A stretch of DNA of 64,000 bases, taken from positions 64,001-128,000 of the forward strand of contig CAWEJX010000015.1 in the NCBI GenBank assembly GCA_963809485.1. Reading direction: 5' to 3'. Source of the DNA: an uncultured Acidobacteriota bacterium. Lineage in GTDB: Bacteria > Acidobacteriota > UBA6911. The position numbers and the translations under genes were made by a program. The notes under the pieces are model-generated. The model did no database searches. It was not told where the DNA came from and saw only the letters and a list, made by a program, of their open reading frames with translations. Below, one piece after another: positions 970 to 60,226 of this stretch. How positions within the stretch are numbered: the first letter of the stretch is position 1; the number at the start of each line of letters is the position of its first letter.

Positions 970-3610
<2,641 letters not shown>

Positions 3611-3614
3611 AGTT

Positions 3615-3769
3615 TTGGAGGAGTTACGCCGGTCTTGAACGCTGAAGCACGCTGAACGGACGCCGACCCACGCCGACAAAAATTTATATATTTTTTCAGC
3701 GTACGTCAGCGCTTCAAAATATGGAGCTGTCAAACTCTTTGAGTCCCCCGGCAGAGCCGGGGGTTTACC
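3615..3769 (-). mobile_element. Truncated non-autonomous element with an IS200/IS605-like left end and CGCTGAC hairpin cargo
   Basis: Minus strand reads GGTAAACCCCCGGCTCTGCCGGGGGACTCAAAGAGTTTGACAGCTCC...CTCCTCCAA, nearly identical to the element at 23169; right-end hairpins absent. Confidence 0.75.
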
Positions 3770-3836
3770 AATGTAATTATTTAGACTTTTTCCTGTCTGC
3801 CGATATCTATTTGGAGTGTTTGCCAGGGACATTATC

Positions 3837-4529
3837 ATGAGGTTGAAGCACTACTGCATTTTCCTGCTGTCGATGGCCGTCATCGGAATATTCGGGCACA
3901 ACCTGTACAGTCAGGCTCTCTATTCCTATCTCGACCAGAACGGCACGCGCGTATTCACCAACATCCCGCCGGTAAACGCCGTTTGGGATCTCACGGTCAC
4001 CGGTTCGCCTGCGCCCGCACCGGCCGTGGACGAATCCAGGCCAAAATCCGAAAAATTTGATCCCATCATTGAAAAATATGCCGGGGAGCACAACCTGGAT
4101 CCGTCCCTGATCCGCTCCATCATAGCCACGGAATCCGGTTTTAATCCCAAAGCCGTGTCCCGCAAGGGCGCCCAGGGTCTCATGCAGCTGATGCCCGCGA
4201 CCGCCGCGCGTCTCGGAGTCACCAACAGCTTCGATCCCGAGCAGAACATACGGGGCGGCGTCCGCCATTTCCGTTCGCTCATGGATACCTTCGACAATGA
4301 CCTGCATTTGAGCCTTGCGGCCTATAACGCAGGGGAAAACCTGGTGATGCGCCTGGGCCGCGTGCCTGCCATCAAGGAAACCCGGAATTATGTCCAATCC
4401 ATAACACGGCGCCTGAATCCGGAGGGAGAAGGCACGCAAGCTGAGGAAAAGCCCAAACATACGCCGACGTTCCGTTATGTCGACGGCGCCGGTATCCTCC
4501 ACCTTACCAACATCCCGCCTTTACGGTAG
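3837..4529 (+). CDS. Lytic transglycosylase (SLT domain) with DUF4124-like segments
   Basis: Signal peptide; ATESGFNPKAVS.KGAQGLMQLMPATA and LAAYNAGE motifs. Confidence 0.9.
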   Translation: MRLKHYCIFLLSMAVIGIFGHNLYSQALYSYLDQNGTRVFTNIPPVNAVWDLTVTGSPAPAPAVDESRPKSEKFDPIIEKYAGEHNLDPSLIRSIIATESGFNPKAVSRKGAQGLMQLMPATAARLGVTNSFDPEQNIRGGVRHFRSLMDTFDNDLHLSLAAYNAGENLVMRLGRVPAIKETRNYVQSITRRLNPEGEGTQAEEKPKHTPTFRYVDGAGILHLTNIPPLR

Positions 4530-4648: not shown

Positions 4649-6715
4649 ATGGCTCTCGCACGGAAGGCAAATGGGATGGCGCGTTACCTCCCGTGCCTGC
4701 TCGTTTTCACCCTATTTTCAGCTTTCTATGCGCCGGCAAAAACCTGGGAAACGCAGGCCGCCGCGCAGGCATTTCAGGAAGCTCAGCAAAAACGCAGCGA
4801 GCTCGCCCAGAATCCCGATTCGACCATCAGCCAATACCGCCAGTGCGCACTCGCCTACCGGAAGGTTTATCTCCACGATCCGCATTACAGCCGTGCTGGC
4901 GACGCAATCTACGAGGAAGCCCTTCTCTACCAGGAAATGGGTGAAAAATCTTCGGATCCGAGATCCTATGCCACCGCCGCAAGACGTTTCGAATTCCTCG
5001 CCAGCGACTACCCGTCGAACCAGAACTGCCCGGACGCCTTATTGCGCGCAGGGAATATCTACCTGAACAATCTGAACAACGAAGAGGCGGCCAGGGAAAC
5101 ATTCCTTCGCCTCAAAACCGTTTATGGCAGGCCCGGCGCCCTGGCGCGGCTGGAGCAAAGCCGCCCGGCTCAAAAGCCGGTTCCGCCGCCGGCAGAAGCT
5201 GCCGTAACGGCGGCATCTTCGGCTGCCGCCACTTCAGTCCAGAATATAAGATATTGGATTACGGACGAATACACGCGTGTCGTTATCGATATGGACATGA
5301 CTACGTCCTACGAGAGGGCTCGCCTCTATTCGCCGTACAGGATCTATTTTGATATTTCCAATGCCCAGCTGGCCGGCGGCGTGAAAAGCCGGACATTTTC
5401 CATCGAGGATGAGCTCGTCAAGCAGGTCCGCGTCTCCCAGAACCGACCTGATCTGGTTCGCGTGGTGCTCGATCTCTCGTCCGAAGGGACCTATTCCGCA
5501 TTCGAGCTTCATGATCCATTCCGGATCGTCGTCGACCTGTATCGCAAAGCCGGCGAAAAAGCCGCAATCAAGCATTCGCCGCTCGAATCCGTTCCCCGCG
5601 CCGACGAATTCGGCCCGAAGCCGATTTCGAAGCAGGCAGCCGTGGCAGTTCAGGCTGCAAACAAACTTCCGGAAAACCAGCCGGGCGCCGCGATGAAGAA
5701 GGAAGCTTCTCCTACTCCCGCCCCAACAGTCACGAACATCAAACCCGAGGCCAAAAAGCCGGAAACACCGGCATCGACTGCCGTGCTCAAGACTCCGCCC
5801 CCTCCTCCCGCCGTTGTCGAGGTTGAGCCTTCTCCGGCCAGGGCCCAGCCGAAGCCGGCCCCGGATAAAGAAATCAAGGCCGCCGGCGAGGTATCCGCAG
5901 GCCCGGACACCAAACCTTCGCCCCCTGTAAAGCCGGACATATCGGCAGCGCCCAAGGGCGCAACGCCCACCAGCCGCGGAGACCGCACGCTGACGCGCGT
6001 CCTCGGCCTGAAAGTAGAGCGCATCGTCATCGATCCGGGGCATGGCGGGCACGACCTGGGCAGCGTCGGCCCCGGCGGACTCATGGAAAAAGACCTGGTT
6101 CTCTCAGTGGCGCTGAATCTCAAACCCATGCTTGAGGAGAACCTGGGAGCCGAAGTGTTTCTGACGCGCACGGATGACAGCTTCGTCCCGCTTGAAGAGC
6201 GGACCGCTATCGCAAACCGCTGCAAAGCGGACCTTTTTATATCGATCCATGCAAATTCGAGCCGTATCCGTTCAACCAGCGGAGTTGAAACGTATTACCT
6301 CGATTTTGCCAAAACGAACGCCGAGCGCGAAATAGCCGCCCGCGAAAATGCCACCAGCGTCAACAATGTTCATGAGCTCGAAGATCTCATCAAGAAAATC
6401 GCGCAAGCCGATAAGTCTATGGAATCCAGGGAACTGGCCACGATTATTCAGAAAAAGCTTTTTGCGGGAGTGAAAAAAATGTTTTCTTCGGCGCAGGATC
6501 GCGGCGTGCGGCGCGCTCCCTTTATCGTGCTCATAGGCGCAAACATGCCCTCTGTGCTCTCGGAAATCGCCTTTATCAGTAATCCACGGGATGAGCGGCT
6601 TCTGCGCAAGGATGCCAACAAAGAGCGCCTGACCCGTGCCCTGTATTCCGGCATTGAAGATTACATCCGAACGCTGGGAACGAATGTAGTCCAAAATCAG
6701 CCGGGCCCTAATTAG
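4649..6715 (+). CDS. N-acetylmuramoyl-L-alanine amidase (TPR, AMIN, Pro-rich linker, Amidase_3)
   Basis: IVIDPGHGGHD.G, EKDLVL, FISIHANS and SVLSEIAFISN motifs; AMIN-like RVVLDL and RIVVDL. Confidence 0.92.
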   Translation: MALARKANGMARYLPCLLVFTLFSAFYAPAKTWETQAAAQAFQEAQQKRSELAQNPDSTISQYRQCALAYRKVYLHDPHYSRAGDAIYEEALLYQEMGEKSSDPRSYATAARRFEFLASDYPSNQNCPDALLRAGNIYLNNLNNEEAARETFLRLKTVYGRPGALARLEQSRPAQKPVPPPAEAAVTAASSAAATSVQNIRYWITDEYTRVVIDMDMTTSYERARLYSPYRIYFDISNAQLAGGVKSRTFSIEDELVKQVRVSQNRPDLVRVVLDLSSEGTYSAFELHDPFRIVVDLYRKAGEKAAIKHSPLESVPRADEFGPKPISKQAAVAVQAANKLPENQPGAAMKKEASPTPAPTVTNIKPEAKKPETPASTAVLKTPPPPPAVVEVEPSPARAQPKPAPDKEIKAAGEVSAGPDTKPSPPVKPDISAAPKGATPTSRGDRTLTRVLGLKVERIVIDPGHGGHDLGSVGPGGLMEKDLVLSVALNLKPMLEENLGAEVFLTRTDDSFVPLEERTAIANRCKADLFISIHANSSRIRSTSGVETYYLDFAKTNAEREIAARENATSVNNVHELEDLIKKIAQADKSMESRELATIIQKKLFAGVKKMFSSAQDRGVRRAPFIVLIGANMPSVLSEIAFISNPRDERLLRKDANKERLTRALYSGIEDYIRTLGTNVVQNQPGPN

Positions 6716-7014
6716 CTTCTGTCGCGTAACTCGGATTTCGCGAGGAAACCGGCCTTTTTTGAACAGTCGATAGGAAATTTGATATTACACAGAAACCGGA
6801 AATTGAAGCAGGCCGCGTAGCGGCCAGCTGAATTTAGCCGGGCCTTTTAAGGCCTGGATCTAAAGAAGTCAGGTTTTCCGTCGCGGAGCGACGGCTGAAT
6901 CTCAGGCGTCGCTACGCGACGCGCTGTTCCCAATACCATGGCTTCGGCCTTAAAAGGCCGGGCTAAAATCTTGGTGCCGCTACGCGGCGCAAACCAGTTT
7001 CGCGACGGAAACTA
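6713..7014. mobile_element. 302-bp MITE-like element with terminal inverted repeats and internal REP-like palindromes, copy 1
   Basis: Ends TAGCTTCTGTCGCGTAAC and GTTTCGCGACGGAAACTA; second copy of the same length at 46460-46761. Confidence 0.85.
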
Positions 7015-8776: not shown

Positions 8777-8858
8777 TTCAAACGCTGACGAACGCTGAAA
8801 AAATATATAAATTCCTATCCGCGTTCGTCAGCGTTACTTTCAGCGTTCGTCAGCGTTA
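8777..8858. repeat. CGCTGAC/GTCAGCG micro-repeat hairpin
   Basis: ACGCTGACGAACGCTGAAAAAATATATAAATT...GCGTTCGTCAGCGTT between convergent genes. Confidence 0.8.
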
Positions 8859-10617
8859 CCTGCTTCATCACGGCTTGCCGCCATTTGCGTACGGAATTGA
8901 TCAAATAGATATTCCCGCACCGCTTCAAGTCCTCAAGCTTGATCACGCGCTCCCGGATTTTGCCCTGTTCGAGCAGCAGGGCGCGGAATGTCCCGGCCAG
9001 CAGTCCCGAGGATACGGGAGGCGTGTACAGGATCCCATCCATTTCCAGCACGAGATTCGCGATGCAGGATTCCGTCAATTCGCCGCGCTCGTTCCACAGC
9101 AAGACGTCGTCACAATCAGGGCAGGCCTGTTGCGCGGCTTCGTAAACCTCCCGCCGCGTTGTCTTGTGATACAGGAATATATCCGATGAATTCACTGCCG
9201 AGGATGCGATTGCGACAATCACGGGACGGTCTTCACCCCGGGATGCCGGCTCTGCAGCCTGCAGGACGGGAATCCCGTCGGCTCCCAGGAGAAGCCGCAC
9301 CCGCTGCGGCTGGCCGCCGAAAGCGGATGCCAGAGCATCCAGTCTGCTTTGGATCAGACCGGTGTCGGCTCGATACGCGAAATAGCGCGCCGAATCCACC
9401 AGCCTTTTGAGGTGATACTCCAGCAGAAAATACCCTTCTTCCGGCGTCCACAAAAGGGTTTCGAGCAATGAAAACTCCGGATACCGCTCCGTCAGCACGC
9501 GCGCCTTGAGCAGGGCTTCGGCATATTCGTCGCCGGGCTCCGAATCCCAGACGATCCCTCCGCCCGCCCCATACTCCAATTGCCCCGACAGCCGATTCAC
9601 GACAGCCGTCCGTATGGCCACATTGAACTGGGCAGAGCGGCCGGGCGCAATATATCCGATGCTGCCCGTGTAAATCCCGCGCGGATCCGGCTCAAGCTCG
9701 GAAATGATATGCGTAGTCCGCACCTTCGGAGCACCGGTGATCGAGGCGCAGGGGAAAAGCGCCGCCAGTATCTCGCCCACGGGTTTCGTGCAGTCCGCCT
9801 CGACCGTGGACGTCATCTGCCAGAGAGTGGGGCGCCGTTCCACCTCGAACAGTCGCGTAACTTTTACCGTGCCCGTCTCGGCTACACGGCCCAGGTCGTT
9901 GCGAATCATATCCACGATCATCAGATTTTCGGCGCAGTTCTTCTCCGAACCGCGCAGCCATTCGGCCAGAGTCTCATCTTCGTCCAGCGTTCGCCCGCGC
10001 TTGACGGTGCCCTTCATCGGCTTGCCGGTCAAGCGCCGACCTTCCAGGCGGAAGAAAAGCTCCGGAGACGCGCAGCATATCCAGTGGCGTCCGGTCTCGA
10101 TCCACGCGGCATAGCCCGGCGACTGAGCCCTCGCCATGGCCAGGAATAAATGCCACGGGTCTCCGCTGAGACGGCTCCGGAGCCGCAGTGTGTAGTTCAC
10201 CTGATAGGTTTCCCCGAAGAGTATGTACTCCCGGATGCGGCGGATCGCCCGCTCGTAATCCGGCTGCGAGACGGAGGGAACGACCTCCCCCAGGGAATAG
10301 GCTCCGAAGTCCGGCGGCGGAAGCTCCAGTACCTCAGGAGCAGAATACAGGCCGAACCACAGCAGAGGAATATTGTCCGGCGCAGCATGCGTGCGCAGTG
10401 CCGAATCAAAAGCCGGGGCCGCTTCGTAGCTGATAAAGCCCGCAGCGTGCCAACCCTTTTCATGCACCAGTTTTTCGATGCGGCTCAGGGCACTCGCTAT
10501 CTCATCAAGCCGGCGGCACACAATAATCTCGTGCGCATCCCCGAATCCGATCCATTGCCCTGCCGCAGGGTCATGCAGGACGACTTGACAGGGCGCCGTG
10601 GCAGCATCCATAGGCAT
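8815..10617 (-). CDS. pabB: Aminodeoxychorismate synthase component I fused to an aminotransferase-IV (PabC-like) domain
   Basis: GETYQVNYT, SPELFF, KPMKGT, AENLMIVDMIRNDLG and FPCASITGAPK; C-terminal LLETL, HKTTRR and GLLAGTFR. Confidence 0.9.
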   Translation of the reverse strand: MPMDAATAPCQVVLHDPAAGQWIGFGDAHEIIVCRRLDEIASALSRIEKLVHEKGWHAAGFISYEAAPAFDSALRTHAAPDNIPLLWFGLYSAPEVLELPPPDFGAYSLGEVVPSVSQPDYERAIRRIREYILFGETYQVNYTLRLRSRLSGDPWHLFLAMARAQSPGYAAWIETGRHWICCASPELFFRLEGRRLTGKPMKGTVKRGRTLDEDETLAEWLRGSEKNCAENLMIVDMIRNDLGRVAETGTVKVTRLFEVERRPTLWQMTSTVEADCTKPVGEILAALFPCASITGAPKVRTTHIISELEPDPRGIYTGSIGYIAPGRSAQFNVAIRTAVVNRLSGQLEYGAGGGIVWDSEPGDEYAEALLKARVLTERYPEFSLLETLLWTPEEGYFLLEYHLKRLVDSARYFAYRADTGLIQSRLDALASAFGGQPQRVRLLLGADGIPVLQAAEPASRGEDRPVIVAIASSAVNSSDIFLYHKTTRREVYEAAQQACPDCDDVLLWNERGELTESCIANLVLEMDGILYTPPVSSGLLAGTFRALLLEQGKIRERVIKLEDLKRCGNIYLINSVRKWRQAVMKQVTLTNAESNADERG

Positions 10618-11632: not shown

Positions 11633-11676
11633 CCGTTCTCCTTTAATAATAAGCTGACCCTGGCCTCAAAAGGCCG

Positions 11677-11713
11677 CGTATGTCAGCGCCTTTGTCGGCG
11701 TCCGTCAGCGTTA
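11677..11713. repeat. Short GTCAGCG repeat remnant overlapping the birA stop codon
   Basis: CGTATGTCAGCGCCTTTGTCGGCGTCCGTCAGCGTTA. Confidence 0.6.
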
Positions 11714-12690
11714 CGCTGTCCGGTTCAGACGCACATCGGCGGCGAGCACTGTCTCAACGGTTCCCTCCGCCGTGCGCACAAGCAATGCCCCGTTTTCGTT
11801 CAGTCCGCAGGTGACCGCCGGGCGGCGGCCCGCTTCATCGGAGATCCAGACTGCGGCTCCATTCCACATGGAGGACAGACTCTTCCATCGATCGAGCACT
11901 TCCCGGCGCTTCCCCTGCTCGAAAATTTTATACCAATTTTGAAATTTCTTCAGGAAGCCGACGAGAATCTGCCGGCGCGGGACAAAGCTGTCGGCCATTT
12001 CATCCAGGCATCGCAGCCTCGATCCTTCAAATCCGGCGGCACGCTTCCTTCGTGAACATTCAGGCCCACCCCGACAATCGCGGTCTGGCTTTCTCCCCCG
12101 CCCGGCCCGGTTTCGAGCAGGATTCCCGCACATTTCTTTGCCGAAATCAGCACATCGTTGGGCCATTTAATGTCGATTGCGAGGGAGGCCCGTTTTTGTC
12201 GGAAGAAATCTTTCAGCGCCTCCACCAGTGCAACGGAGGCAACATGCGTCAACAGAGGCCACGCCGCGACAGGCTGTCCCGGCCTCACCACCAGGCTGAA
12301 ATAAAGCCCCGACCGGGCCGGCGAAAACCAGCTGTGCCCCTTTCTTCCCCGCCCCGCTGTTTGCTCTTCTGCAACTACCAGGGTTCCTGCCGGCGCGCCC
12401 TGCTGCGCCATTTTCAGCGCCTCTTCGTTCGTGGATTCGATGCTCAAAAATCCATGGACGCGCAGCCAGTCCCAGGCGACGGCCGGCGTTTCCCTCTGGA
12501 TCCAGTAGGGCACAAGCTGCTCCTGATCGTAGATCAGGCTCACCCGCTCATCGGCGGTTTTCAGTTGAAAGCCCCATTGCCGGCACAGCTCCAGCTCCAT
12601 TTGAAACGGGGCGGAGGCGCTCAGCGGCAGCCCGTGTTGCCCCACATGACCGAGATCGGTCAGAATCGACGGATATTTGAGTGTAGGCAT
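11711..12690 (-). CDS. birA: Biotin--[acetyl-CoA-carboxylase] ligase (frameshifted near 12010-12022)
   Basis: STNEEA, EQTAGRGRKG.SW.SP, IKWPNDV and KKCAGIL.E in ORF 11950-12795; C-terminal GLNENGALLV in ORF 11711-12166. Confidence 0.88.
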
Positions 12691-15491: not shown

Positions 15492-15575
15492 AACACTAAC
15501 ACACGCAACACACGCCGATTTTTATTTCGATTTTCGGCGTTCGTCGGCGTTTTCGTCAGCGTATATCAGCGTTAT
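15492..15575. repeat. Degenerate CGCYGA/TCRGCG micro-repeat hairpin
   Basis: ACACGCCGATTTTT...TTTTCGGCGTTCGTCGGCGTTTTCGTCAGCGTATATCAGCGTTA. Confidence 0.7.
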
Positions 15576-18427: not shown

Positions 18428-19723
18428 CTACGGCCGCCGCACCATCAGGGCGGCAAAAAAACCATCCCAAAGCCGTGTGGATGGAAAGGTGCGCACCATT
18501 ATGTCCTGCCCCGTCCAGGCCTCTATGCCCGGCGGATGGAGCGGCCGCGCCAAACCGAAATCCTTGTTTCCGGCAAGAAAGGATTCCACCACCCGTTCAT
18601 TCTCCTCAGGTTCCGTGGAGCAAGTCGAGTAAAGCAGCCGGCCGCCTGCCCGGACAGCCTTGGACACGGAGTCGAGCATGCGCTCCTGGGTCTGCTGCAG
18701 GGACGCCAGCCGCTCCGGCTGGAAATGCCACTTGATTTCCGGATTCCTGCGCAAAGTCCCCAGCCCGGAACAAGGGACATCCGCAACAACGGCATCGAAA
18801 CAATCCCGGAAAGGCGCCGGAGCACAGGCATCCGCAACCAGCACATCCGCCCGAGGGCCCTGAGCTTGTTTCAGGAGCCTCACCAGACGCGTAATCCGTT
18901 CGCCGCGCAAATCGCTTGCGACCGCCAATCCCCCGGTCCCGCATTGGCGGCGCAATATGTCGTATTTGCCTCCGGGAGCCGCACAAGCATCCCAGATCTT
19001 CCACCCCCGGATCGGTCCCAGCAAATGAGCAACAAGCTGGGAGGCCTCATCCTGGTAATGAATCCAAGACGGTTCACTTTGTTTACGACCGGAACCGGAA
19101 GACGTTTCAAAATATGCGTCCGGGACGATGTCCGACGGCTCCATCTCCGAATCCGGCCGCTCATCGGGATTCTCATTGATGCGCACGGTTGCACGCGGCG
19201 GAACATTGAGCGACAGGGCGAAGTCGCGAGCCTGCCCTTCCCCGTACCGTGCGGCCCAGCGGTCCCAAAGCCAGCGAGGCAGCGAAACACGCGCCCAGGG
19301 AGGCGCCTTGCGCAGGAAAGCCTCCTCCTGCCACGGACGGGCGCGCGCCAGGCGCCGCAACACTGCGTTCACAAAGCGGTCGATGCCGTCGCCCAACTCA
19401 ATCTTGGCCAGCTCGACCGCGTCGTTCACCAGCGCGTGGTCCGGCACGCGATCCATCCGCCACATCTGATAGAGGCTCATGCGCAGTAGAATCCTGGCGC
19501 CGGGCGTTACCTCCTGCCAGGGCCGGGAACTGGCGGCGGTAAGCACATAATCGAGCGTTCCCTGCCAACGCAGGGAACCGTATACGATTTCCGTCGTGAA
19601 ATGCCGGTCCCGGAGATCGAGCCGCTCCACGGCCGGCGAATTCAGCGCATCGTCGCTGAAAACCGTCCCGGCGTCGATGCGCCGCAGAAGGTCGTAGCAG
19701 GTCTTACGGGCAGGAGAAATCAT
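18428..19723 (-). CDS. rsmB: 16S rRNA m5C967 methyltransferase RsmB/Sun
   Basis: NusB-like N-terminus, QDEASQ, DACAAPGGK, DVPCSG, YSTCS; downstream of fmt. Confidence 0.93.
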   Translation of the reverse strand: MISPARKTCYDLLRRIDAGTVFSDDALNSPAVERLDLRDRHFTTEIVYGSLRWQGTLDYVLTAASSRPWQEVTPGARILLRMSLYQMWRMDRVPDHALVNDAVELAKIELGDGIDRFVNAVLRRLARARPWQEEAFLRKAPPWARVSLPRWLWDRWAARYGEGQARDFALSLNVPPRATVRINENPDERPDSEMEPSDIVPDAYFETSSGSGRKQSEPSWIHYQDEASQLVAHLLGPIRGWKIWDACAAPGGKYDILRRQCGTGGLAVASDLRGERITRLVRLLKQAQGPRADVLVADACAPAPFRDCFDAVVADVPCSGLGTLRRNPEIKWHFQPERLASLQQTQERMLDSVSKAVRAGGRLLYSTCSTEPEENERVVESFLAGNKDFGLARPLHPPGIEAWTGQDIMVRTFPSTRLWDGFFAALMVRRP

Positions 19724-19725
19724 CT

Positions 19726-19903
19726 GTTGAACGTTGAACGTTTGTACGTTTGCACGTTTGAACGTGAAACGTGGAAGGTGGAAACAGAATGGCCGGTATG
19801 AGCTAATCTTTCACTTTCCACGTTTCACTTTTCACGTTCCATTTTCCACGTCGAGGTTGAACGTTTAAACGTTCCAACGTGCAAACGTTCAACGTTCAAC
19901 GTT
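19726..19903. repeat. AACGTT-core 7/8-mer repeat array in inverted arrangement
   Basis: GTTGAACGTTGAACGTTTGTACGTTTGCACG...AACGTTCCAACGTGCAAACGTTCAACGTTCAAC fills the fmt-rsmB gap. Confidence 0.85.
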
Positions 19904-20843: not shown

Positions 20844-21353
20844 TCACCAGTCCCCGGCCTTTGCCAGTTTCTTGATCTTGTTTCGTATGAGGGACCGCTT
20901 CAGGGGGCTGAGGTGGTCGATGAAAAGCACCCCGTTGAGGTGATCGATTTCGTGGCTGAAACAGCGGGCCAGCAATCCATCGCCTTCAAATTCAACTTCC
21001 TCTCCCTCGGCGTTCCGGCCGCGGACTTTTATTCTCAAGGGGCGCGATATGGTCTCGCTGAATTCGGGCAGGCTCAGGCACCCTTCGTCGCACTTCTGCT
21101 CTCCTTCCTGATAAATGATCTCAGGGTTGCATAGCACGATCAGCTGGCCGGGATCTTCGCCGACAGACAGGTCGATGGTTGTCAGCTGGATCCCAAGGCC
21201 TACCTGAGGGGCCGCAAGGCCGATGCCCGGCGAACTGTACATAGTATCGATCATATTTTTGATGATTTTGCGTAATTCATCATCAAAAGTCTCAACCGGC
21301 TTGTTGACGGCCCTCAGCTCGGGCGCCCCATATCTCAGAATAGGCAGTATCAT
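20844..21353 (-). CDS. def: Peptide deformylase
   Basis: GIGLAAPQVG, EGCLS, HEIDHLNG. Confidence 0.97.
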   Translation of the reverse strand: MILPILRYGAPELRAVNKPVETFDDELRKIIKNMIDTMYSSPGIGLAAPQVGLGIQLTTIDLSVGEDPGQLIVLCNPEIIYQEGEQKCDEGCLSLPEFSETISRPLRIKVRGRNAEGEEVEFEGDGLLARCFSHEIDHLNGVLFIDHLSPLKRSLIRNKIKKLAKAGDW

Positions 21354-21402
21354 AAACACTAAATTTTAATAGAGATAACGCCATGTGTAAAGTGACAATC
21401 AA

Positions 21403-21917
21403 GTTGAAACGTGGAAACGTTGGAACGTTTGCACGTTGGAATGTTGAAAGGCCGGCAGTAGCCCCTAATTCTATTGGTAAACCCACGGCTCTGCCGGTGG
21501 ACTCATAGAGTTTGACAGCTCCGTATTTTGGAACGCTGAGATACGCTGACAAAAGCGCTGACAAACGCCGATCTGTTCGGCGAGGGTCGGCGAGCAAAAG
21601 CCGATGAGGCGCTTCCGATGGAGATTTCTGCGGCGGCACTGTGGCAAGCGCCGTGCGGCAAGGAGATTGAGGTTATGTGAAACAGGGCGTTTGCCACAGT
21701 GCCGCCGCAGAAATCTGTCCAGCGCGGAGCGCTGGCCCCTGCGGGGATCGGAAGCGCCTCATCGGCTTTTGCCCGCGTAAGTCAGCGTTCAAGACCAGCG
21801 TAACTCCTCCAACCGCTTTGAGCGGTTCCAATCTTTCAAGCCTCCGGCTTTGCCGGAGGTGCCTGACAGTCATTATTTTTCAACGTGCAAACGTTCCAAC
21901 GTTTAAACGTTCAACGT
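21403..21917. repeat. Nested composite of inverted repeats bounded by AACGTT arrays
   Basis: 21417-21440 matches the reverse complement of 21879-21902 at 23 of 24 bases; encloses the IS200-like element. Confidence 0.85.
21476..21867 (+). mobile_element. Non-autonomous element with both IS200/IS605-like ends and an extra inverted-repeat insert
   Basis: Left end GGTAAACCCACGGCTCTGCCGGTGGACTCATAGAGTTTGACAGCTCC; right end CCGCTTTGAGCGG...AAGCCTCCGGCTTTGCCGGAGGTGCCTGAC; no transposase ORF. Confidence 0.8.
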
Positions 21918-21968
21918 CCCAACCGGCGGTCCGGAAAGCAGCCTGAGCGCCACAGCAGGTTGCGGGCC

Positions 21969-23138
21969 TCAGTATTCATCAAGCAGCTGCAGGTAGTTGT
22001 GGTAGTTTGCCTCGATTTCGCCGACGGAATCGCCGCCGAATTTTTCCCGGAAGGCGCCCGCAAGTACCATGGCGAGCATGGCTTCCGCAACAGTGCCTGC
22101 GGCCGGGACCACGCAGGTGTCTCCCCGCTCAACTGCGGCATCGAAAGCTTTCTTGGATCCCACATCGGAAGACATTAGCGGCCGCCGCAGCGTCGGGATC
22201 GGCTTCAGGAAGACGCGCACGCGGATATCCGCGCCGTTGCTGATGCCGCCCTCGATGCCGCCCGCCCGGTTCGTCCGTCGAAGGAATCGCCGGGTCCCGG
22301 CATCATAATAAATTTCGTCGTGAAAGCCCGAGCCCGGCAACCGCGCTCCCTCGATCCCGCTTCCGATTTCAACCGCTTTGGCCGAAGGGATGCTCATCAT
22401 GGCCTGTGCAATCTGACCGTCCAGCCTCCGGTCCCACTGGATGTACGAACCGAGGCCGGGCGGGACGGGCCCTGCCGCCACCTCGATGACCCCGCCGAGA
22501 GTATCCCCTGCCTTTTCCGCTTCCTCGATGCGCGCCATCATGCGTTTTTCGGCCTCGGGATCGGCGCAGCGCAGGGGAGATGCCGCCAGTACCAGGATTT
22601 TTTCAATAGCCGGCTCCTCGAATCCGGCCGCAATGCGCTCGGAGCCGACTGCCACGCAGTGGCTCCCGATGCGTATGCCGAAACGATCGAGGAAGAGCCG
22701 GCAGAACGCCCCTCCGGCGACCCGCACCGCGGTCTCGCGCGCGCTGGCGCGTTCCAGCACGTCGCGTATATCGTGGGTCTGGTATTTGAGCGCGCCCGCA
22801 AGATCCGCGTGGCCCGGCCTGGGCCGGGTAACGGACCGCAGGTCCGACCCTTCCGGCGCCTCTTCCACCGACATCGGGATCTTCCAGTTTTCATAGTCCC
22901 TGTTGCGGATGCAAAAGGATATCGGGCTGCCCAACGTCTTTCCCTGGCGCACTCCCGACAGGATCTCGATATGATCCTGTTCTATCTGCATGCGGCCCCC
23001 GCGCCCTGGCCCGGCCTGGCGCCGGCGCAGTTCAAGGTCGATGAAACCGGTGTCAATCGCGATCCCGCGGGGCAATCCCTCCAGCACGCCAATCAGGCAT
23101 TTCCCGTGCGATTCCCCTGCCGTCACAAACCGGATCAT
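21969..23138 (-). CDS. aroC: Chorismate synthase
   Basis: TAGESHG, RPGHADL, ERASARETA.RVA, NRAGGIEGGISNG. Confidence 0.97.
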   Translation of the reverse strand: MIRFVTAGESHGKCLIGVLEGLPRGIAIDTGFIDLELRRRQAGPGRGGRMQIEQDHIEILSGVRQGKTLGSPISFCIRNRDYENWKIPMSVEEAPEGSDLRSVTRPRPGHADLAGALKYQTHDIRDVLERASARETAVRVAGGAFCRLFLDRFGIRIGSHCVAVGSERIAAGFEEPAIEKILVLAASPLRCADPEAEKRMMARIEEAEKAGDTLGGVIEVAAGPVPPGLGSYIQWDRRLDGQIAQAMMSIPSAKAVEIGSGIEGARLPGSGFHDEIYYDAGTRRFLRRTNRAGGIEGGISNGADIRVRVFLKPIPTLRRPLMSSDVGSKKAFDAAVERGDTCVVPAAGTVAEAMLAMVLAGAFREKFGGDSVGEIEANYHNYLQLLDEY

Positions 23139-23168
23139 ATCCCCTCGCTTCCCAATATTAATTACATT

Positions 23169-23420
23169 GGTAAATCCCCGGCTCTGCCGGGGGACTCAAA
23201 GAGTTTGACAGCTCCGTATTTTGAAACGCTGACATACGCTGACATACGCTGACATACGCTGACATGACGCTGACGTACGCTGAAAAAATATATAAATTTT
23301 TGTCGGCGTGGGTCGGCGTCCGTTCAGCGTAAGTCAGCGTTCAAGACCGGCGGAACTCCTCCAACCGCTTTGAGCGGTTCAAATCTTTCAGGCCTCCGGA
23401 TTTGCCAGAGGCACCTGACT
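23169..23420 (+). mobile_element. Non-autonomous element with both IS200/IS605-like ends and CGCTGACATA tandem cargo
   Basis: Same ends as 21476-21867; internal (ACGCTGACAT)x3 then GCTGAAAAAATATATAAATTTTTGTCGGC. Confidence 0.82.
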
Positions 23421-23559
23421 TCTATTTTCGTGCGAACGGCTCTCCGGAGATCGTCCGGTAAGGCGAAGGCCCGATATTCGCCTTTCGGCCACACATGCCT
23501 TTGCCCTTGACTTAATAAAGCGCCGCCCCATAAACTTTCGCGAGGCTCATTAGAAAGCT

Positions 23560-24366
23560 ATGCAAAACATACTGAGCAGAATGCTTGGATTTCCCTTCCG
23601 CATTCTCGCAAAATCCATCCTGGAAATTCAAGCCTACACCCTCTTGTCCGCCCGAGCCATCGCAAACCTTTTTACGCGCCCGATTTATTTTCGTGAGGTC
23701 CTGCTTCAGATGGATCGCATGGGCATCGGGTCGCTCATCATCATCATCCTGACCGGATTCTTTACCGGTGCGGTCATGGCTATTCAATCCGAGGGCGCCC
23801 TGCGCAGGTACGGCGCCGTCAGCATGACGGGCCAGCTTGTTTCCCTGACGGTGATCCGCGAGCTGGGCCCTGTGCTCTCCGCGTTGATGCTGGCCGGGCG
23901 CGTGGGCGCGGGCATCGCGTCGGAATTAGGCTCGATGGTTGTATCGGAGCAGATCAGCGCCATGCGTTCTCTGGGGACGGATCCCACCCGCCGGCTGGTG
24001 ACCCCCCGCATGATGGCCCTGGTCCTGATGCTGCCGCTCCTCACAATAGTCTGTGACTCGGTGGGCATGTTCGGCGGCTGGCTGATCGCGAAATACAAGC
24101 TCCTCATCAGCTCGAGCCAGTACTGGGCGGACGCAATCGACGCGATCCAGTTTTCCGACCTCGTCGGAACCTTCGTCAAGCCCGTCGTCTTCGGATTCAT
24201 CGTGTCGATCACCGGCTGCTACGTCGGGCTGCGTACCAGCGGCGGCACCGAGGGCGTCGGGAGATCCACGACCCAGGCGGTCGTCAGCAGTTCCGTCCTG
24301 GTTCTTGCGGCCGATTTTTTACTGAATAATATACTGATTTATCTGGCCCCCTATCTGAATGCATGA
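23560..24366 (+). CDS. mlaE: MlaE-family lipid ABC transporter permease
   Basis: RELGPVL.ALM.AGRVGAGIASELGSM...EQI.AM, GG.EGVG.STT.AVV. Confidence 0.93.
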   Translation: MQNILSRMLGFPFRILAKSILEIQAYTLLSARAIANLFTRPIYFREVLLQMDRMGIGSLIIIILTGFFTGAVMAIQSEGALRRYGAVSMTGQLVSLTVIRELGPVLSALMLAGRVGAGIASELGSMVVSEQISAMRSLGTDPTRRLVTPRMMALVLMLPLLTIVCDSVGMFGGWLIAKYKLLISSSQYWADAIDAIQFSDLVGTFVKPVVFGFIVSITGCYVGLRTSGGTEGVGRSTTQAVVSSSVLVLAADFLLNNILIYLAPYLNA

Positions 24367-27110: not shown

Positions 27111-27187
27111 AAAACACTGACGAACGCCGATATTAAATAGATTTTTTCAGCGTGCGTCGGCGTTCTGTCGGCGTGCGTCAGCGTAAT
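27111..27187. repeat. CGCTGAC/GTCAGCG micro-repeat hairpin between convergent genes
   Basis: ACACTGACGAACGCCGA...TTTTTTCAGCGTGCGTCGGCGTTCTGTCGGCGTGCGTCAGCGT. Confidence 0.8.
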
Positions 27188-31698: not shown

Positions 31699-31828
31699 TC
31701 GCCAAACACTCCGTCCCCAAATTGCCGGAGGGAAATTCAACGCGAGTGAAATTAACACAGCAGTCGAGCACCCGCAATGGAAAGTCCGCGCTGTAGTCGC
31801 GGGTTTTGGTGGGGAACGGAGGATCAAA

Positions 31829-31884
31829 GGGATTAGGGATTAGGGATTGGGGATTAGGGATTGGGGATTGGGGATTGGGGATTA
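31829..31884 (+). repeat. G-rich heptamer tandem (GGGATTR)x8
   Basis: gggatta gggatta gggattg gggatta gggattg gggattg gggattg gggatta. Confidence 0.9.
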
Positions 31885-31986
31885 GAGAATTAGGATTAAG
31901 GAGCAGAGGACTCGAAAACCGCATCGGTGTTTTGCAAATTTGACGAATGCGCTGCTCCCCAATCCGCCTATTGTTGTCTCCCACCA

Positions 31987-32145
31987 TGATCCTTCGCCCC
32001 TTCATCCTTCTGATCCTTTGTTCCCTTATTCCTCTGCGCCTTCATCCCTTTGATCCTCTGATCCTCGACTGAATCCTTTGATCCTTGAATCCTCATCACC
32101 TCCATCCCTTTGATCCTCTGATCCTTTGATCCTTGAATCCTCTAC
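31987..32145 (+). repeat. Pyrimidine-rich octamer array (ATCCTYTG-like)
   Basis: Repeated ATCCTTTG/ATCCTCTG/ATCCTTGA with an internal duplication; complementary unit GGAGGATCAAAGGG at 31818. Confidence 0.8.
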
Positions 32146-32237
32146 CCCATAACCCACCACGAAACGCATTTCAAAACACTCAGCGTTACGGAAAATTGAA
32201 CGATAAGGAACAACGGCGGCTAACATGTTGATATCAA

Positions 32238-35680: not shown

Positions 35681-35774
35681 CAACATTAGCGGATCAACTG
35701 CTGAGAAAATAGTATTTATAATTTTTCAGCGTGCGTCAGCGTTTATCGGCGTGCGTCAGCGTTAAAATTTATGG
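35681..35774 (+). repeat. About 90-bp CTGCTGAGAAAAT...TCAGCGTTAAAATTTATGG element
   Basis: Close copies at 45459, 50527, 54535 and 59672. Confidence 0.88.
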
Positions 35775-35808
35775 ACTGCCGATGGGCGAATGACCGGTTA
35801 TGGCTTAG

Positions 35809-40355: not shown

Positions 40356-40486
40356 GTTGAACGTTTGAACGTTGAACGTTAGAATGTTTGAACGTTTACG
40401 GGTTGCACGTTCGAAGTCTGCACTTTCGACTTACAACGTTCAACGTGCAAACCTTCCAACGTGCAAACGTTCAAACGTTCAACGTT
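40356..40486. repeat. AACGTT-core repeat array in inverted arrangement
   Basis: GTTGAACGTTTGAACGTT...AACGTTCAAACGTTCAAC. Confidence 0.85.
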
Positions 40487-40532
40487 ACTGCAGGTAGCCT
40501 CCACCTGCATTTCCTGCTATCATGGCAATACT

Positions 40533-45458: not shown

Positions 45459-45519
45459 CTGCTGAGAAAATGGTATTTATTTATATTATTTCAGCGTGCG
45501 TCAGCGCTAAAATTTATGG
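45459..45519 (+). repeat. Shorter copy of the 90-bp element
   Basis: CTGCTGAGAAAATGGTATTTAT...TTTCAGCGTGCGTCAGCGCTAAAATTTATGG. Confidence 0.85.
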
Positions 45520-45558
45520 ACGAGCCTCCGGAGCCGTCCTTCACCAAAACCCGGAGGG

Positions 45559-46169: not shown

Positions 46170-46245
46170 GGGCGCCTAGCTCAGCTGGTAGAGCACTGCG
46201 ATCACACCGCAGGGGTCACAGGTTCGAGTCCTGTGGCGCCCACCA
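46170..46245 (+). tRNA. tRNA-Val(CAC)
   Basis: 76 nt; acceptor GGGCGCC/GGCGCCC; anticodon arm CTGCG-ATCACAC-CGCAG; encoded CCA; TTTACA-N17-TAAAAC upstream. Confidence 0.96.
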
Positions 46246-46459: not shown

Positions 46460-46761
46460 TATTTTCTGTCGCGAAACTCGGGTTTTGCGAGGAAACCGGA
46501 TTTTTGGGCAATCGATAGGATATTTGATATTACATGGAAGCCGGAAATTGGAGCCGGGCCGCGTAGCGGCCAGTTGAATTTAGCCAGGCCTTTTAAGGCC
46601 TGGATCTAAAAAGATTAGGGTTTCCGTCGCGTAGCGACGGCTGAATCTCAGGCGTCGCTACGCGACGCGCTGTTCGCAATACCATGGTTCCCGGCCTTGA
46701 AAGGCCGGGCTAAAATCATAGTGCCGCTACGCGGCACAAACCGGTTTCGCGACAGACACTA
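46460..46761. mobile_element. 302-bp MITE-like element, copy 2
   Basis: Ends TATTTTCTGTCGCGAAAC and GTTTCGCGACAGACACTA; colinear with 6713-7014. Confidence 0.85.
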
Positions 46762-50528: not shown

Positions 50529-50611
50529 CATTAACTGCTGAGTAAATAGTATTTATAATTTTTCAGCGTGGGTCAGCGTTTATCGGCGTGCGTCAGCGTT
50601 AAAATCTATGG
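50527..50611 (+). repeat. Copy of the 90-bp element, overlapping the HAD stop codon
   Basis: AACATTAACTGCTGAGTAAATAGTATTTATAATTTTTCAGCG...TTAAAATCTATGG. Confidence 0.88.
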
Positions 50612-50635
50612 GCGAGCCTCACCAAAATATTTACT

Positions 50636-51862: not shown

Positions 51863-51957
51863 GGAACTCCTCCGCTCAGATACACTTTCAACTGGATATG
51901 GATGAGGGAAGTTTAATTATCGCCTTTTTTGATGATTGGGTCAACCAAATTCCTATT

Positions 51958-52082
51958 ACGTTGGAACGTTTGCACGTTTGCACGTTTGAATGTTTGAACG
52001 TTTAAACGTTTTAACGTTCTAACGTGCCAACGTTTTAACGTGCCAACGTTTTAACGTGCCAACGTTCAACGTTCAACGTTTC
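51958..52082. repeat. About 16-unit ACGT-core 8-mer array
   Basis: acgttgga acgtttgc acgtttgc acgtttga ... acgtgcca acgttca acgttca. Confidence 0.9.
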
Positions 52083-54534: not shown

Positions 54535-54623
54535 CAGCATTAACTGCTGAGAAAATGGTATCTATCTATTTTTTTCAGCGGGCGTCAGCGTTTTTCAGCG
54601 TGCGTCAGCGTTAAAATTTATCG
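54535..54623 (+). repeat. Copy of the 90-bp element
   Basis: CAGCATTAACTGCTGAGAAAATGG...TCAGCGTGCGTCAGCGTTAAAATTTAT. Confidence 0.88.
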
Positions 54624-54637
54624 AGGACCCAACTGCC

Positions 54638-57600: not shown

Positions 57601-58873
57601 CGGAATGCTTCAGAGCAGAACAACGCGGATGGTTGCGGCGTTCAATCACATGCACATTTTTATCGACCCCAATCCTGATCCCGAAAAAAGCTACAGGGAG
57701 CGGGAAAGAGTGTTCAATCTTCCGCGATCGACGTGGCGCGATTATGACGCATCGGCGATCAGTGAAGGGGGCGGCATTTTCGATCGTTCGGCCAAGGCCA
57801 TCAAGCTGAGCCCGCAGATGCAGGCGCTGCTGGGCATTCAGGCCGAGAGCGCCAGCGGCGAGGAGTTGATCCGGCGCATTCTGACGGCGCAGGTTGATCT
57901 GCTTTACAACGGGGGCATCGGGACGTACATCAAGGCGACCGGCGAATCCGATGCCGAGGTCGGCGACCGGACCAACGACCGTGTCCGCGTGAATGCGGCG
58001 GAAGTCCGGGCCCGCGTCGTGGGGGAAGGCGGCAATCTGGGCATTACTCAGAAGGGGCGGATCGAGTACTGGATGCACGGCGGGCTGATCAACACCGACG
58101 CCCTGGACAATTCAGGCGGCGTGGACACATCCGACCACGAGGTGAACCTCAAGATTCTGCTCGACCTGCTGCTGAAAAAAGGGATTGTGCGCAGCAAGGA
58201 GGAACGCAACACGCTGCTGGCGGAGATGACGGAGGAGGTGGCGGCGCTGGTGCTGGCCGACAACGTGAACCAGTCCCGGGCGCTTTCGCTGGATGGACTG
58301 CGCAGTGCAGCGGATTATGCGTCCTATGTGAAGCTTACGGATGAAATGCTATCGCGCGGTATTGTGGACCGGCATTATGCGCATCTGCCGTTAAGCGAGG
58401 AATTGCGGCGCAGCGAGCAAAGGAAGCGCGGGCTGCCCAGGCCGCTGCTGGCGGACCTGCTGGGATACACGAAGATGTGGGGCTCCGACGGAATCATGGG
58501 CGGGGATCTGCCGGACAGCGATGTGGCGCTTCCCTACCTGCAGGGTTATTTCCCGAAGCGCCTGCACAAAGACTTTGGCGCGTACTTCAGGGAGCATCCT
58601 TTGCGCCGGGAGATCATTGCGACTGCGGTGATCAATTACGTGGTGAACAACGGGGGAATTGGTCTGTTGCCGCGTCTGATGCTGGCAAGCGGCAAGGGGC
58701 TCAGCGAAGTGATTGCGGCTTATTTGACGGCGGACCGGGATTCTGCTGCGTGCACCCGCCGCCAGCAAATCCTCGATGCGGGACTTGCAGCCCACCCCGA
58801 GCACGAAGCTCTGCTTGAAATCGAGAACGCCCTGGAATCCGCCACCCTGGCATGCCTTGCCACAAGTCCTTGA
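54638..58873 (+). CDS. Large NAD-specific glutamate dehydrogenase
   Basis: HLRGG.VARGGIRWSDR, VPVGSKGGF, YLVVAADKGTA, DAFASGG, GDMAGDVFGNGML, GVDTSDHEVN. Confidence 0.95.
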   Translation: MITKDPVKRARVVSQVIEILNRIAAPEDKHLALSIAPVILGEASDRIMFLLDPEILARRLMYHFKFIVHEMPPSIQLVKGPPGIHVAVYNPDDEEALAMGGGAGAPLESTVVRTHTLDAPFIFDSLKNYFSKAGLRVFSAVHPTFAVRRQWERIVWIGPPHEEGIRESYCQFQIEPVDSQERLRRMQHEIFSVLKCVFLAVEDFQPMAAQTKEIARLLRGKSENAAELASARAFADWLPEENYIFLGLARYSQGEDGRLHRSEDTVLGVFRDPELLPVVFPNLVDEAESHILPAADDARIVCLDFSKNSSALHHLEPIDYVIFREWDAQGNFSGASLLLGRFSRGAYSQRSERIPLLREKIQWILEDSQADRNSFIYRELVSTFNRMPMRELFYAPPATLKGLMEPIAFMLSDEEIVVRMRRGAGYISLAIAFSRLRYSYGLEAGIRKAFAEAFGPVAFETLADCGSANLLLFYFDLDRLIHPIDEEAVLKIASTLIRNWEDKVFAEVEAVYGEREGRRLFQRFVTAETRSGLYREITPPEMVPEDLRHLNQLESRLEVRIVPRSADTARLHLYSMHALGLTETLRTLDNLGFEVTDEIRIPLLLPEDRKCYLYRFEIRGAPAQIQALKEGEDRFVEALRVLDEDRATNDALNGLILSVGLGWRDVEALRTVRNHLVQIRQYYNADTVNRVLLNNSSVAGALFRCFSARFDPALPGDRQEAMQAAERVFQTALDTVASLADDEILRAMHNLILSSLRTNFYQLPERPVFSIKVESGKVENMPAPIPMFEIYVHSNKIEGIHLRGGRVARGGIRWSDRHDDFRTEILGLMKTQMLKNTIIVPVGSKGGFVLKGDVPARPALDAYLVRRYSEYISGLLDVTDNIADGQILHPPEVVRQDEDDSYLVVAADKGTAHLSDTANGISEHYGYWLGDAFASGGKTGYDHKKIGITARGAWECVKHHFRNLGTDIQKEPFTVCAIGDMAGDVFGNGMLQSRTTRMVAAFNHMHIFIDPNPDPEKSYRERERVFNLPRSTWRDYDASAISEGGGIFDRSAKAIKLSPQMQALLGIQAESASGEELIRRILTAQVDLLYNGGIGTYIKATGESDAEVGDRTNDRVRVNAAEVRARVVGEGGNLGITQKGRIEYWMHGGLINTDALDNSGGVDTSDHEVNLKILLDLLLKKGIVRSKEERNTLLAEMTEEVAALVLADNVNQSRALSLDGLRSAADYASYVKLTDEMLSRGIVDRHYAHLPLSEELRRSEQRKRGLPRPLLADLLGYTKMWGSDGIMGGDLPDSDVALPYLQGYFPKRLHKDFGAYFREHPLRREIIATAVINYVVNNGGIGLLPRLMLASGKGLSEVIAAYLTADRDSAACTRRQQILDAGLAAHPEHEALLEIENALESATLACLATSP

Positions 58874-58892
58874 GGAGCCTTCTGACTTTATT

Positions 58893-58938
58893 GTCAGCGT
58901 ACGTCAGCGCTCATCGGCGTACGTCAGCGTTAAAATTT
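58893..58938 (+). repeat. 3' half of the 90-bp element between convergent genes
   Basis: GTCAGCGTACGTCAGCGCTCATCGGCGTACGTCAGCGTTAAAATTT. Confidence 0.8.
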
Positions 58939-58958
58939 CCGCGATAAGCTACTATCCT

Positions 58959-59671: not shown

Positions 59672-59760
59672 CAACATTAACTGATGAGAAAATATTATTT
59701 ATATAAAATTTTTCAGCGTGCGTCAGCGTTTATCGGCGTACGTCAGCGTTAAAATTAATG
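59672..59760 (+). repeat. Copy of the 90-bp element just left of the IS
   Basis: CAACATTAACTGATGAGAAAAT...TCAGCGTGCGTCAGCGTTTATCGGCGTACGTCAGCGTTAAAATT. Confidence 0.88.
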
Positions 59761-59878
59761 TGCAGGCTTCCCTAATCCCGCGCTAAGGGGCCGAGGGGCG
59801 CGTCATCCCTGCAATTCCTAAAACTTTTCTGGAGAAAATGCTTGACTTTTTATTATGGATGGGATACATAGCCAATCC

Positions 59879-60226
59879 ATGGAAACCTTACAACGGATTC
59901 AGCTCGAAAAACAGCGGGATGCTTTGCTGGAACAATTGCACGGAATTGGCAACCTCATGCGCGGAACCCTGGTTCAGACGAAGGTCCGCTGCGGACGCAA
60001 AGGTTGTGTCTGCGAAACTGGCGAGAAGCATGTGAAGGTGCATTTGTCTCTGAATCTCCACGGGCGCACCCGAGGCTGTTATGTGGGAGAGCGGGAAGAA
60101 GCAGTTGCTGCCCTGATCCGCGAATATCAGCGTGCGTGGCACCTGATCGAACAGTTGACGGAAGTGAACCTGGAACTGATCCGCGGGAATCATCCGGGCG
60201 GACGACGGAGCAAGAAACGGAGATGA
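59879..60226 (+). CDS. IS accessory protein, DUF6788-like (putative Zn-binding)
   Basis: RGTL....RCGRKGCVC..GEKH motif; ATGA overlap with the transposase. Confidence 0.75.
   Translation: METLQRIQLEKQRDALLEQLHGIGNLMRGTLVQTKVRCGRKGCVCETGEKHVKVHLSLNLHGRTRGCYVGEREEAVAALIREYQRAWHLIEQLTEVNLELIRGNHPGGRRSKKRR

Follow-up and report, generated by a model that had tools for sequence, protein, structure and literature searches.

PATEs, the closest described systems, are characterized in the passages cited here as elements that have no inverted terminal repeats, carry palindromes near their termini with the longer distance on the 5' side, cause no target duplications and are associated with a short targeting oligonucleotide (PMC3119063, PMC7290912, PMC10055086). 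Core deletions mediated by repeats are reported for them, as are 192 cases of one element lying within another (PMC3119063, in the portion cited). The features of the IS200/IS605 family were taken from the relevant part of PMC7290912, and the PATEs used for comparison are the HqIRS families of Haloquadratum walsbyi and the PATE-like elements of Geobacillus stearothermophilus and Halanaerobium. A smaller element of Haloquadratum, SMR-A, is about 110 bp long and has prominent terminal inverted repeats; it makes no target duplication and inserts in the near-terminal palindromes of PATEs, as described in the same portion of PMC3119063. The intergenic REP palindromes are insertion hot spots for mobile elements, ISPpu9 and ISPpu10 being the ones named in the cited section (PMC1525189). 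The idea that small repeats and insertion sequences insert into palindromes is already in print, at least in these sections (PMC3119063, PMC1525189). Finally, the class 1 global regulator binding sites of Geobacter metallireducens are described, in the parts of the source cited here, as paired intergenic arrays of tandem octanucleotides, one on each strand, separated by a variable distance; ISGme8 or ISGme9 is sometimes inserted at a fixed distance from these arrays, and the function given for the sites in those parts is conjecture only (PMC2700814).

The window analysed here, that is, the whole stretch of DNA with its 64,000 nucleotides, encodes aroC and def on the minus strand, with fmt and rsmB coming after them according to Pfam. 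In the spacer between aroC and def, the region 21403–21917 is taken up by inverted repeats that lie one inside the other. The first-pass annotation counted five layers from the outside inwards, namely AACGTT arrays (layer 1), IS200-like ends (layer 2), CGCTGAC/GTCAGCG repeats (layer 3) and two long inverted repeats (layers 4 and 5), and took them for elements that insert preferentially into each other's hairpins. Our preferred reading, to which we assign a probability of roughly two in three, is that the spacer holds two things and not five: an AACGTT palindrome of the host and a single non-autonomous PATE-like element of about 400 bp that bears layers 3–5 as cargo. The coordinates of all features are collected in Table 1.

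Table 1. Features of the aroC–def spacer, its neighbours and the copies of the PATE-like element in the window
Feature	Position	Strand	Remarks
Chorismate synthase aroC	21969–23138	minus	Pfam E 3e-111; upstream neighbour of the element
Peptide deformylase def	20844–21359	minus	Pfam E 6e-51; downstream neighbour of the element
Layer 1, left arm	21401–21453	.	Tandem 8-nt units on AACGTT; inverted pairing with the right arm
Palindrome loop remnant	21454–21469	+	Ends in TAAT (21466–21469)
Layer 1, right arm	21875–21925	.	AACGTT octamer units
PATE-like element, A subfamily (layers 2–5)	21466/21470–21867	+	Non-coding, ~400 bp; 402 bp including TAAT
Left-end hairpin	21482–21500	+	8-nt stems, TCT loop; 12–16 nt inside the boundary
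Layer 3, left arm	21531–21567	+	CGCTGAC units; partner arm 21765–21790
Inner palindromic module	21590–21776	+	Layer 4 arms enclose layer 5; unpaired 30 nt (21717–21746) with two mini-hairpins
Layer 5	21622–21716	+	Perfect 26-nt arms 21622–21647 / 21691–21716; 43-nt core 21648–21690
Right end	21811–21867	+	Two hairpins, 21811–21827 and 21841–21859; last 8 nt end in CCTGAC
Copy A, A subfamily	21466–21867	+	Between aroC and def
Copy B (sister copy), B subfamily	23159–23419	+	Same ends, 89–91% identity; without layers 4–5; CGCTGAC arrays, AT-rich loop
Copy C, B subfamily	3615–3783	-	Right end missing

Repeat detection over 21200–22100 returned four inverted-repeat pairs. The arms of the AACGTT arrays (21408–21441 / 21878–21911) are 34 nt long and 91% complementary, those of layer 3 (21531–21556 / 21765–21790) 26 nt and 85%, those of layer 4 (21590–21619 / 21747–21776) 30 nt and 97%, with a single mismatch, and those of layer 5 (21622–21655 / 21683–21716) 34 nt and 94%, a 31-nt version of the latter having one mismatch. 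Within the 64-kb window, each of two 26-nt test strings from the inner arms matches its own pair of arms and nothing else, with 0 matches expected from 100 shuffles. When 21395–21925 is folded as DNA, the energy is -185.8 kcal/mol compared to -90.9 ± 5.8 kcal/mol for 100 shuffles (z -16.5); the RNA of the minus strand gives -294.5 kcal/mol compared to -179.7 ± 7.1 kcal/mol (z -16.2), and in neither case was any of the 100 shuffles as stable. The five nested inverted repeats are thereby confirmed as real and far above chance. On this point the first-pass annotation was right, both in the positions of its five layers and in taking the region for a true nest of repeats.

Layer 1 is a separate intergenic repeat of the host, and the PATE-like element lies at its centre, where pairing is loose, immediately behind a TAAT. 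The window has four AACGTT palindromes, and an uninterrupted example was also found in the Acidobacteriota MAG described below. Three of those in the window (19722–19903, 40357–40493 and 51950–52080) are inverted arrays with no insert; the one between aroC and def is interrupted at its centre by layer 2, and to this extent the first-pass reading is supported. The first of them fills the spacer between fmt and rsmB; its loop resembles, by eye, the loop remnant next to copy A and likewise carries CTAAT at its end. With the element deleted in silico, the flanks of copy A form a hairpin of 34 pairs (-36.8 kcal/mol, z -9.2).

A search of genome contigs with a pattern of 23 nt taken from the element's conserved left end gave at least 14 loci, and all those listed belong to one Acidobacteriota MAG, which is the source of all comparison copies beside the window's own three. 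None of the 14 MAG loci overlaps the window and they share only repeats with it, so the window represents either another region or a related genome. BLAST located 17 left ends in the 14 loci among the matches listed, making 20 with the three of the window. In the window and the loci listed, the copies that match the scan pattern number 17 and fall into two subfamilies, 11 being of the A type (including copy A) and six of the B type (including copies B and C). Complete copies range from 192 to 650 bp, and their flanking genes differ among loci. The B-type interior consists of a hairpin of CGCTGAC units with an AT-rich loop; the A-type interior has a shorter loop and, in its right arm, a 187-bp compound palindrome, which comprises layers 4 and 5. 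The lack of layers 4–5 in the sister copy, correctly noticed in the first-pass annotation, is thus due to its membership in the other subfamily. Similar CGCTGAC arrays with an AT-rich loop between them are also found on their own, at 8782–8857 and several times elsewhere in the window.

The ends of the element were defined from 20 aligned left ends and nine long right ends (the window and the 14 loci among the matches listed). Terminal inverted repeats are absent from all nine complete copies: comparison of the first 16 nt with the reverse complement of the last 16 nt yielded at best 4–6 matches in 13–15 positions. Repeat detection over 21200–22100 likewise joined the two termini of copy A by no repeat pair. 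A target duplication is seen in none of the nine complete copies if TRAT is counted as flank; if it is not, eight of them have none and the copy at L010 shows one 4-nt coincidence. The sequence T[A/G]AT stands at the left edge of 16 of the 20 left ends, and sequence conservation starts there; it could serve as a motif for targeting or cleavage and may lie inside or outside the element. A GC-rich hairpin lies near each end of the complete copies; in copy A the right one (21841–21859) is 8 nt from the end of the element and the left one farther from its boundary. The assignment of IS200/IS605-like ends to layer 2 in the first-pass annotation is supported. Across 20 copies, the left stem is paired in 88% of 159 cells; no compensatory change was seen, and the covariation values lie within those of the shuffles. 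In the consensus, the two end hairpins agree at 16 of 19 positions on the same strand and at 14 of 19 when one is inverted; the hairpins are near-perfect palindromes and the difference comes from the loops alone, both of which are T-rich on the same strand. Open reading frames cross the element, for example 21503–21697 on the minus strand, and the copies differ by indels and one inversion. The open reading frame across the L012 copy has no match in Pfam.

Judged by its architecture alone, the element is probably a PATE of the IS200/IS605 type. For such an element, a Y1 HUH transposase encoded elsewhere would recognise the end hairpins on one strand, the element would be excised as single-stranded DNA, and it would then be inserted into a single-stranded target, 3' of T[A/G]AT. 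Y1_Tnp and TnpB/OrfB-type Pfam domains were absent from the 50 open reading frames of the window. Neither Y1_Tnp nor TnpB was found in 108 open reading frames from the MAG loci among those listed, 95 size-selected ones being covered at E ≤ 1e-10 only; the set included 13 frames beside truncated left ends and 10 around L002, L008, L011 and L012. The defining tie to a Y1 transposase was thus not found in the ~0.31 Mb covered, and the element is a putative member of the PATEs. A classical MITE derived from a DDE element was considered and rejected, because none of the nine complete copies has terminal inverted repeats or a target duplication.

It is unlikely that the element is mobile by means outside the IS200/IS605 family, either through another HUH enzyme (RAYT/REPIN-like or IS91-like) or as an atypical DDE MITE. 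Such a reading would fit the failure to find a Y1 transposase in the frames scanned and the fact that either orientation can be assigned to the end hairpins; in addition, the window encodes a DDE_Tnp_1_4 transposase (60004–61626), and the sole outside match of the right end adjoins a DDE insertion sequence. This match, the only one in a search of 72,556 plasmid records, covers 49 bp of the right-end double hairpin at 90% identity and is located on a Desulfolutivibrio plasmid. However, the DDE element of this plasmid is bounded by terminal repeats of its own, with the hairpin block beyond them (by eye), the T-rich loops of both end hairpins are on the same strand, and a DDE origin is again at odds with the nine copies that show neither terminal repeats nor duplications. 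The plasmid element was also rejected as a parent of the family, since the 49-bp match falls outside it. A search of 50,697 phage records gave no match.

The evidence for layers 3–5 as cargo comes from locus L012, where a copy of the element sits after kdpD-like genes without surrounding AACGTT arrays. This copy holds the full A-type interior with identical layer-to-layer junctions (343 bp, 87.8% identity). The presence of the same junctions of layers 3–5 at an unrelated locus indicates that the nest was built before it arrived between aroC and def. Layers 3–5 thus appear to be cargo of the A subfamily that moved together with the element, the L012 copy being the single second full-length copy in support. 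The proposal that layers 4 and 5 are later insertions at the aroC–def site is not supported in view of this copy. Nor do the inner repeats behave as independent families: in the window and the 14 loci listed (~0.31 Mb, with an overlap of ~9.7 kb between L001 and L008), BLAST found the inner module only inside the PATE-like element. The sole isolated match to the inner arms is 16 nt long (L011:6319, E 0.011) and has no partner arm.

These data bear directly on the stepwise model, according to which five elements were inserted here one after another, each in the hairpin of the preceding one, by structure targeting. The strictly nested geometry of the spacer and the position of the outer insertion in a palindrome loop speak for this model, as does a 108-bp sequence that lies exactly within the right-end hairpin loop at L004; small repeats are also known to insert into PATE hairpins in Haloquadratum, according to the passages cited (PMC3119063). 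Nevertheless, we regard the model as very unlikely. Besides the identical junctions at L012 and the finding that the inner arms never occur alone in the ~0.31 Mb of the window and the loci listed, seven of the nine complete copies lie outside palindromes. Furthermore, comparison of A-type and B-type copies by eye places the inner module in an arm of the CGCTGAC hairpin and not in its loop, and an extra element in the L012 copy was inserted at CTAG between hairpins. Within the two-component reading, the inner module could have entered the ancestor of the A subfamily in one step, as a small inserted repeat bounded by terminal arms of 30 nt, or it could have arisen there through growth of the palindrome by template switching.

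The L012 copy also bears on the possibility that the nest is a fold-back (palindromic) assembly artefact. The window does show signs of indel errors: alaS is spread over at least three open reading frames (1424–3610) and a MatE gene over two (61910–63317), and such split genes are compatible with an error-prone long-read assembly. However, the arms of the nest are imperfect and its structure is asymmetric, with 30 unpaired nucleotides at 21717–21746 and a left end that differs from the right one; at a different locus (L012), an independently assembled MAG contig shows this architecture too, and partial versions are found at four further loci. On these sequence comparisons an artefact appears extremely improbable and is, in practice, excluded.

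Among the matches listed, the inner module is retained whole or in part in six of the 11 A-type copies, and among the copies listed it is complete only in copy A and at L012. The right arm of layer 4 remains at L002 and L011 (35–36 nt), and a 15-nt remnant is left at L008. One common deletion junction, with only the right arm of layer 4 left, is found at three different loci (L001, L002 and L011), which indicates that this deletion form moved after the deletion had taken place. A second deletion junction is present at L008 and larger deletions at L004 and L005 (junctions by eye, with BLAST confirming the arm matches); the copies at L006, L013 and L014 are truncated ahead of the inner module. 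At least four different repeat-mediated deletion forms can be distinguished, with 3–10 nt of microhomology at their junctions (by eye). The 43-nt core of layer 5 shows a different kind of rearrangement. Aligned directly, the cores of copy A and L012 are identical at only 16 of 43 positions, as opposed to 37 of 43 when one of them is inverted. Judging from this alignment, the core between the 26-nt arms has flipped at least once.

General targeting of hairpins or palindromes by the element is not supported. The flanks pair across the insertion point in copy A, as noted above, and weakly at L008 (z -2.3); in the other seven of the nine complete copies they do not, which leaves the suggested preference for insertion into each other's hairpins without a general basis. 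Other nestings do occur. The 108-bp sequence at L004 is unique, no other copy of it being found in the window and the loci listed. The extra element at L012 is about 245 bp long and has its own terminal repeats; only its termini are common to it and a 300-bp repeat with terminal inverted repeats that is found in the window at 6714–7012 and 46464–46759. Nesting is therefore common in this lineage, and a structure-directed rule is not established. A more specific version, in which an HUH-type element would prefer T[A/G]AT where extrusion of a palindrome lays it bare in the loop and the 43-nt core would flip recurrently as a flip-flop switch, draws on the position of copy A in a palindrome loop, the L004 insert and the one core inversion, and we consider it improbable.

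A further alternative is that the nest has been kept for a function: it might serve in the RNA between aroC and def, as an insulator or a site of processing, or it might be an array bound by protein. The genes on both sides are co-directional, the RNA of the minus strand has the very stable predicted fold given above, and a promoter-like site (21391→21363, minus strand, 10 of 12 consensus positions) is located just downstream of the nest, ahead of def. Comparable octamer arrays of Geobacter metallireducens are proposed, in the parts cited, to be global regulator sites (PMC2700814). Against a local role, copies of the element are found at unrelated loci in both orientations and their interiors decay by deletion. 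No terminator-like site was found in a search for one. At gathering score, Rfam recognizes only two tRNAs in the whole window; at E ≤ 1, the region 21300–23600 gives only microRNA-precursor and U4 matches far under their gathering scores, so that no Rfam family can be assigned to the nest. Nothing that we observed requires such a function, and we find it improbable that the nest was kept for one.

What looks like a striking palindrome of five layers is accounted for, in the two-component reading, by two events plus inherited cargo, which calls for caution when nested repeats are read as a history of insertions. On this reading the spacer holds a bacterial repeat mosaic of a commonplace type, most of which came in as a single piece, and the biology of aroC and def is unchanged by the finding as it stands. 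The PATE-like family with its two subfamilies, from an Acidobacteriota-like lineage, is previously undescribed; our literature search found no paper on such repeats in Acidobacteriota. Its decay series, which runs from full-length copies through mobile shared deletion forms to truncations, provides a compact example of palindrome instability. Should the core inversion or the loop targeting prove recurrent, the family would offer a natural system for single-strand transposition into extruded hairpins.

Comparison with the known systems shows partial likeness to each of them. The AACGTT palindrome recalls the octanucleotide arrays of Geobacter metallireducens, as far as these can be compared from the legends of the source, but the unit is GTTGCTYN there and AACGTTNN here, and the two bacteria belong to different phyla. 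As an insertion target, the AACGTT palindrome resembles the REP, BIME and REPIN sequences in the form in which the cited sections present them. Unlike a REP of 20–40 nt, however, the target here is a long palindrome of tandem octamers, and a single event was seen. The REP-seeking insertion sequences that have been published are elements of the IS110 and IS3 families, and the inserting element described here belongs to neither type.

The 187-bp inner module, with its 30-nt terminal arms and no visible duplication, and the 108-bp insert at L004 are both similar to SMR-A as it is described in the portion cited above. In contrast to SMR-A, neither of them was found as an independent repeat in the window and the loci listed, and the inner module lies in the arm of an internal hairpin and not in a near-terminal palindrome.

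The likeness is closest to the PATEs, with three differences. Neither a parental IS200/IS605 element nor a Y1 transposase turned up in the sequence searched; the interior consists of stacked long palindromes (the CGCTGAC arrays and the 187-bp compound palindrome) and not of a tnpA or tnpB remnant; and the host is an Acidobacteriota-like bacterium. Otherwise, within the descriptions of PATEs cited here, the correspondence is extensive. The element has neither terminal inverted repeats nor a target duplication, it carries palindromes near both termini with the longer distance on the 5' side, a short conserved oligonucleotide stands at the 5' edge of most of its copies and may correspond to the targeting motif of PATEs, and it is too short for a transposase gene. 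Like the PATEs, it is present in many copies with heterogeneous interiors, undergoes repeat-mediated core deletions and is frequently nested with small repeats.

The two full-length A-type copies of the element, copy A between aroC and def and its counterpart at L012 in the related Acidobacteriota MAG, carry the 43-nt core of the innermost palindrome, which is flanked by perfect 26-nt arms, in opposite orientations, the identity between the cores being 37/43 when one core is inverted and 16/43 in direct alignment. At the related MAG locus L004, the loop of the right-end hairpin holds a 108-bp insert, placed exactly in the loop; this insert is unique, with no further copies in the sampled sequence (the window and the MAG loci). 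The L012 copy contains a second, small element, which is inserted at CTAG and has terminal repeats (TTTCTGTCGCGAAA... at both ends).

A three-hairpin block on the Desulfolutivibrio plasmid NZ_CP045507.1 includes 49 bp that are 90% identical to the right end of the element. The block adjoins a frameshifted DDE insertion sequence but lies outside its bounds. This match hints that ends related to those of the element occur in another phylum.

The interior of B-type elements, the second subfamily, is the same CGCTGAC module that forms free-standing arrays at ~10 sites in the 64-kb window, often with an AT-rich centre. In the Pfam search of window ORFs, no transposase domain was detected besides that of the DDE_Tnp_1_4 protein. 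The alaS gene is spread over three or more consecutive ORFs, and a MatE transporter gene over two, which suggests either frameshift (indel) errors of the assembly or pseudogenes.

Features of the window and of related loci (plain coordinates are window positions)
Feature	Position	Remark
43-nt core	21648-21690; L012:10141-10183	
108-bp insert	L004, ~9760-9867	minus strand
Small element	L012:10298-10541	
Three-hairpin block	L015 (NZ_CP045507.1), 3950-4056	
CGCTGAC/GTCAGCG arrays	8782-8857, 11674-11714, 15535-15575, 27115-27174, 35693-35781, 45459-45526, 50530-50618, 54542-54630, 58861-58949, 59680-59768	without element ends
Paired inverted AACGTT arrays	19722-19903, 40357-40493, 51950-52080; L005:3476-3567 (related MAG)	8-nt units
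DDE transposase	60004-61626	540 aa; Pfam DDE_Tnp_1_4, E 2e-35
alaS	1424-3610	
MatE transporter gene	61910-63317	
~300-bp repeat	6714-7012, 46464-46759	non-coding; 88% identical
tRNA-Val	46170-46245	
AGGGATT array	31828-31897	tandem heptamers
ATCCTTTG-like array	31973-32149	tandem 8-nt units

Two other kinds of repeat were observed in the window. The ~300-bp repeat contains several hairpins between its terminal inverted repeats, and its second copy lies just past tRNA-Val. The AGGGATT and ATCCTTTG-like arrays, ~80 bp apart, are roughly complementary and form a further inverted tandem-array pair, which partly overlaps a 118-aa ORF with no match in Pfam.

Paired inverted AACGTT arrays occupy entire intergenic spacers and are found at 4 sites in the 64 kb of the window, as opposed to 1 in ~0.25 Mb of the related MAG loci. 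They resemble the octanucleotide arrays of Geobacter metallireducens, which are proposed to be global regulator sites (PMC2700814).
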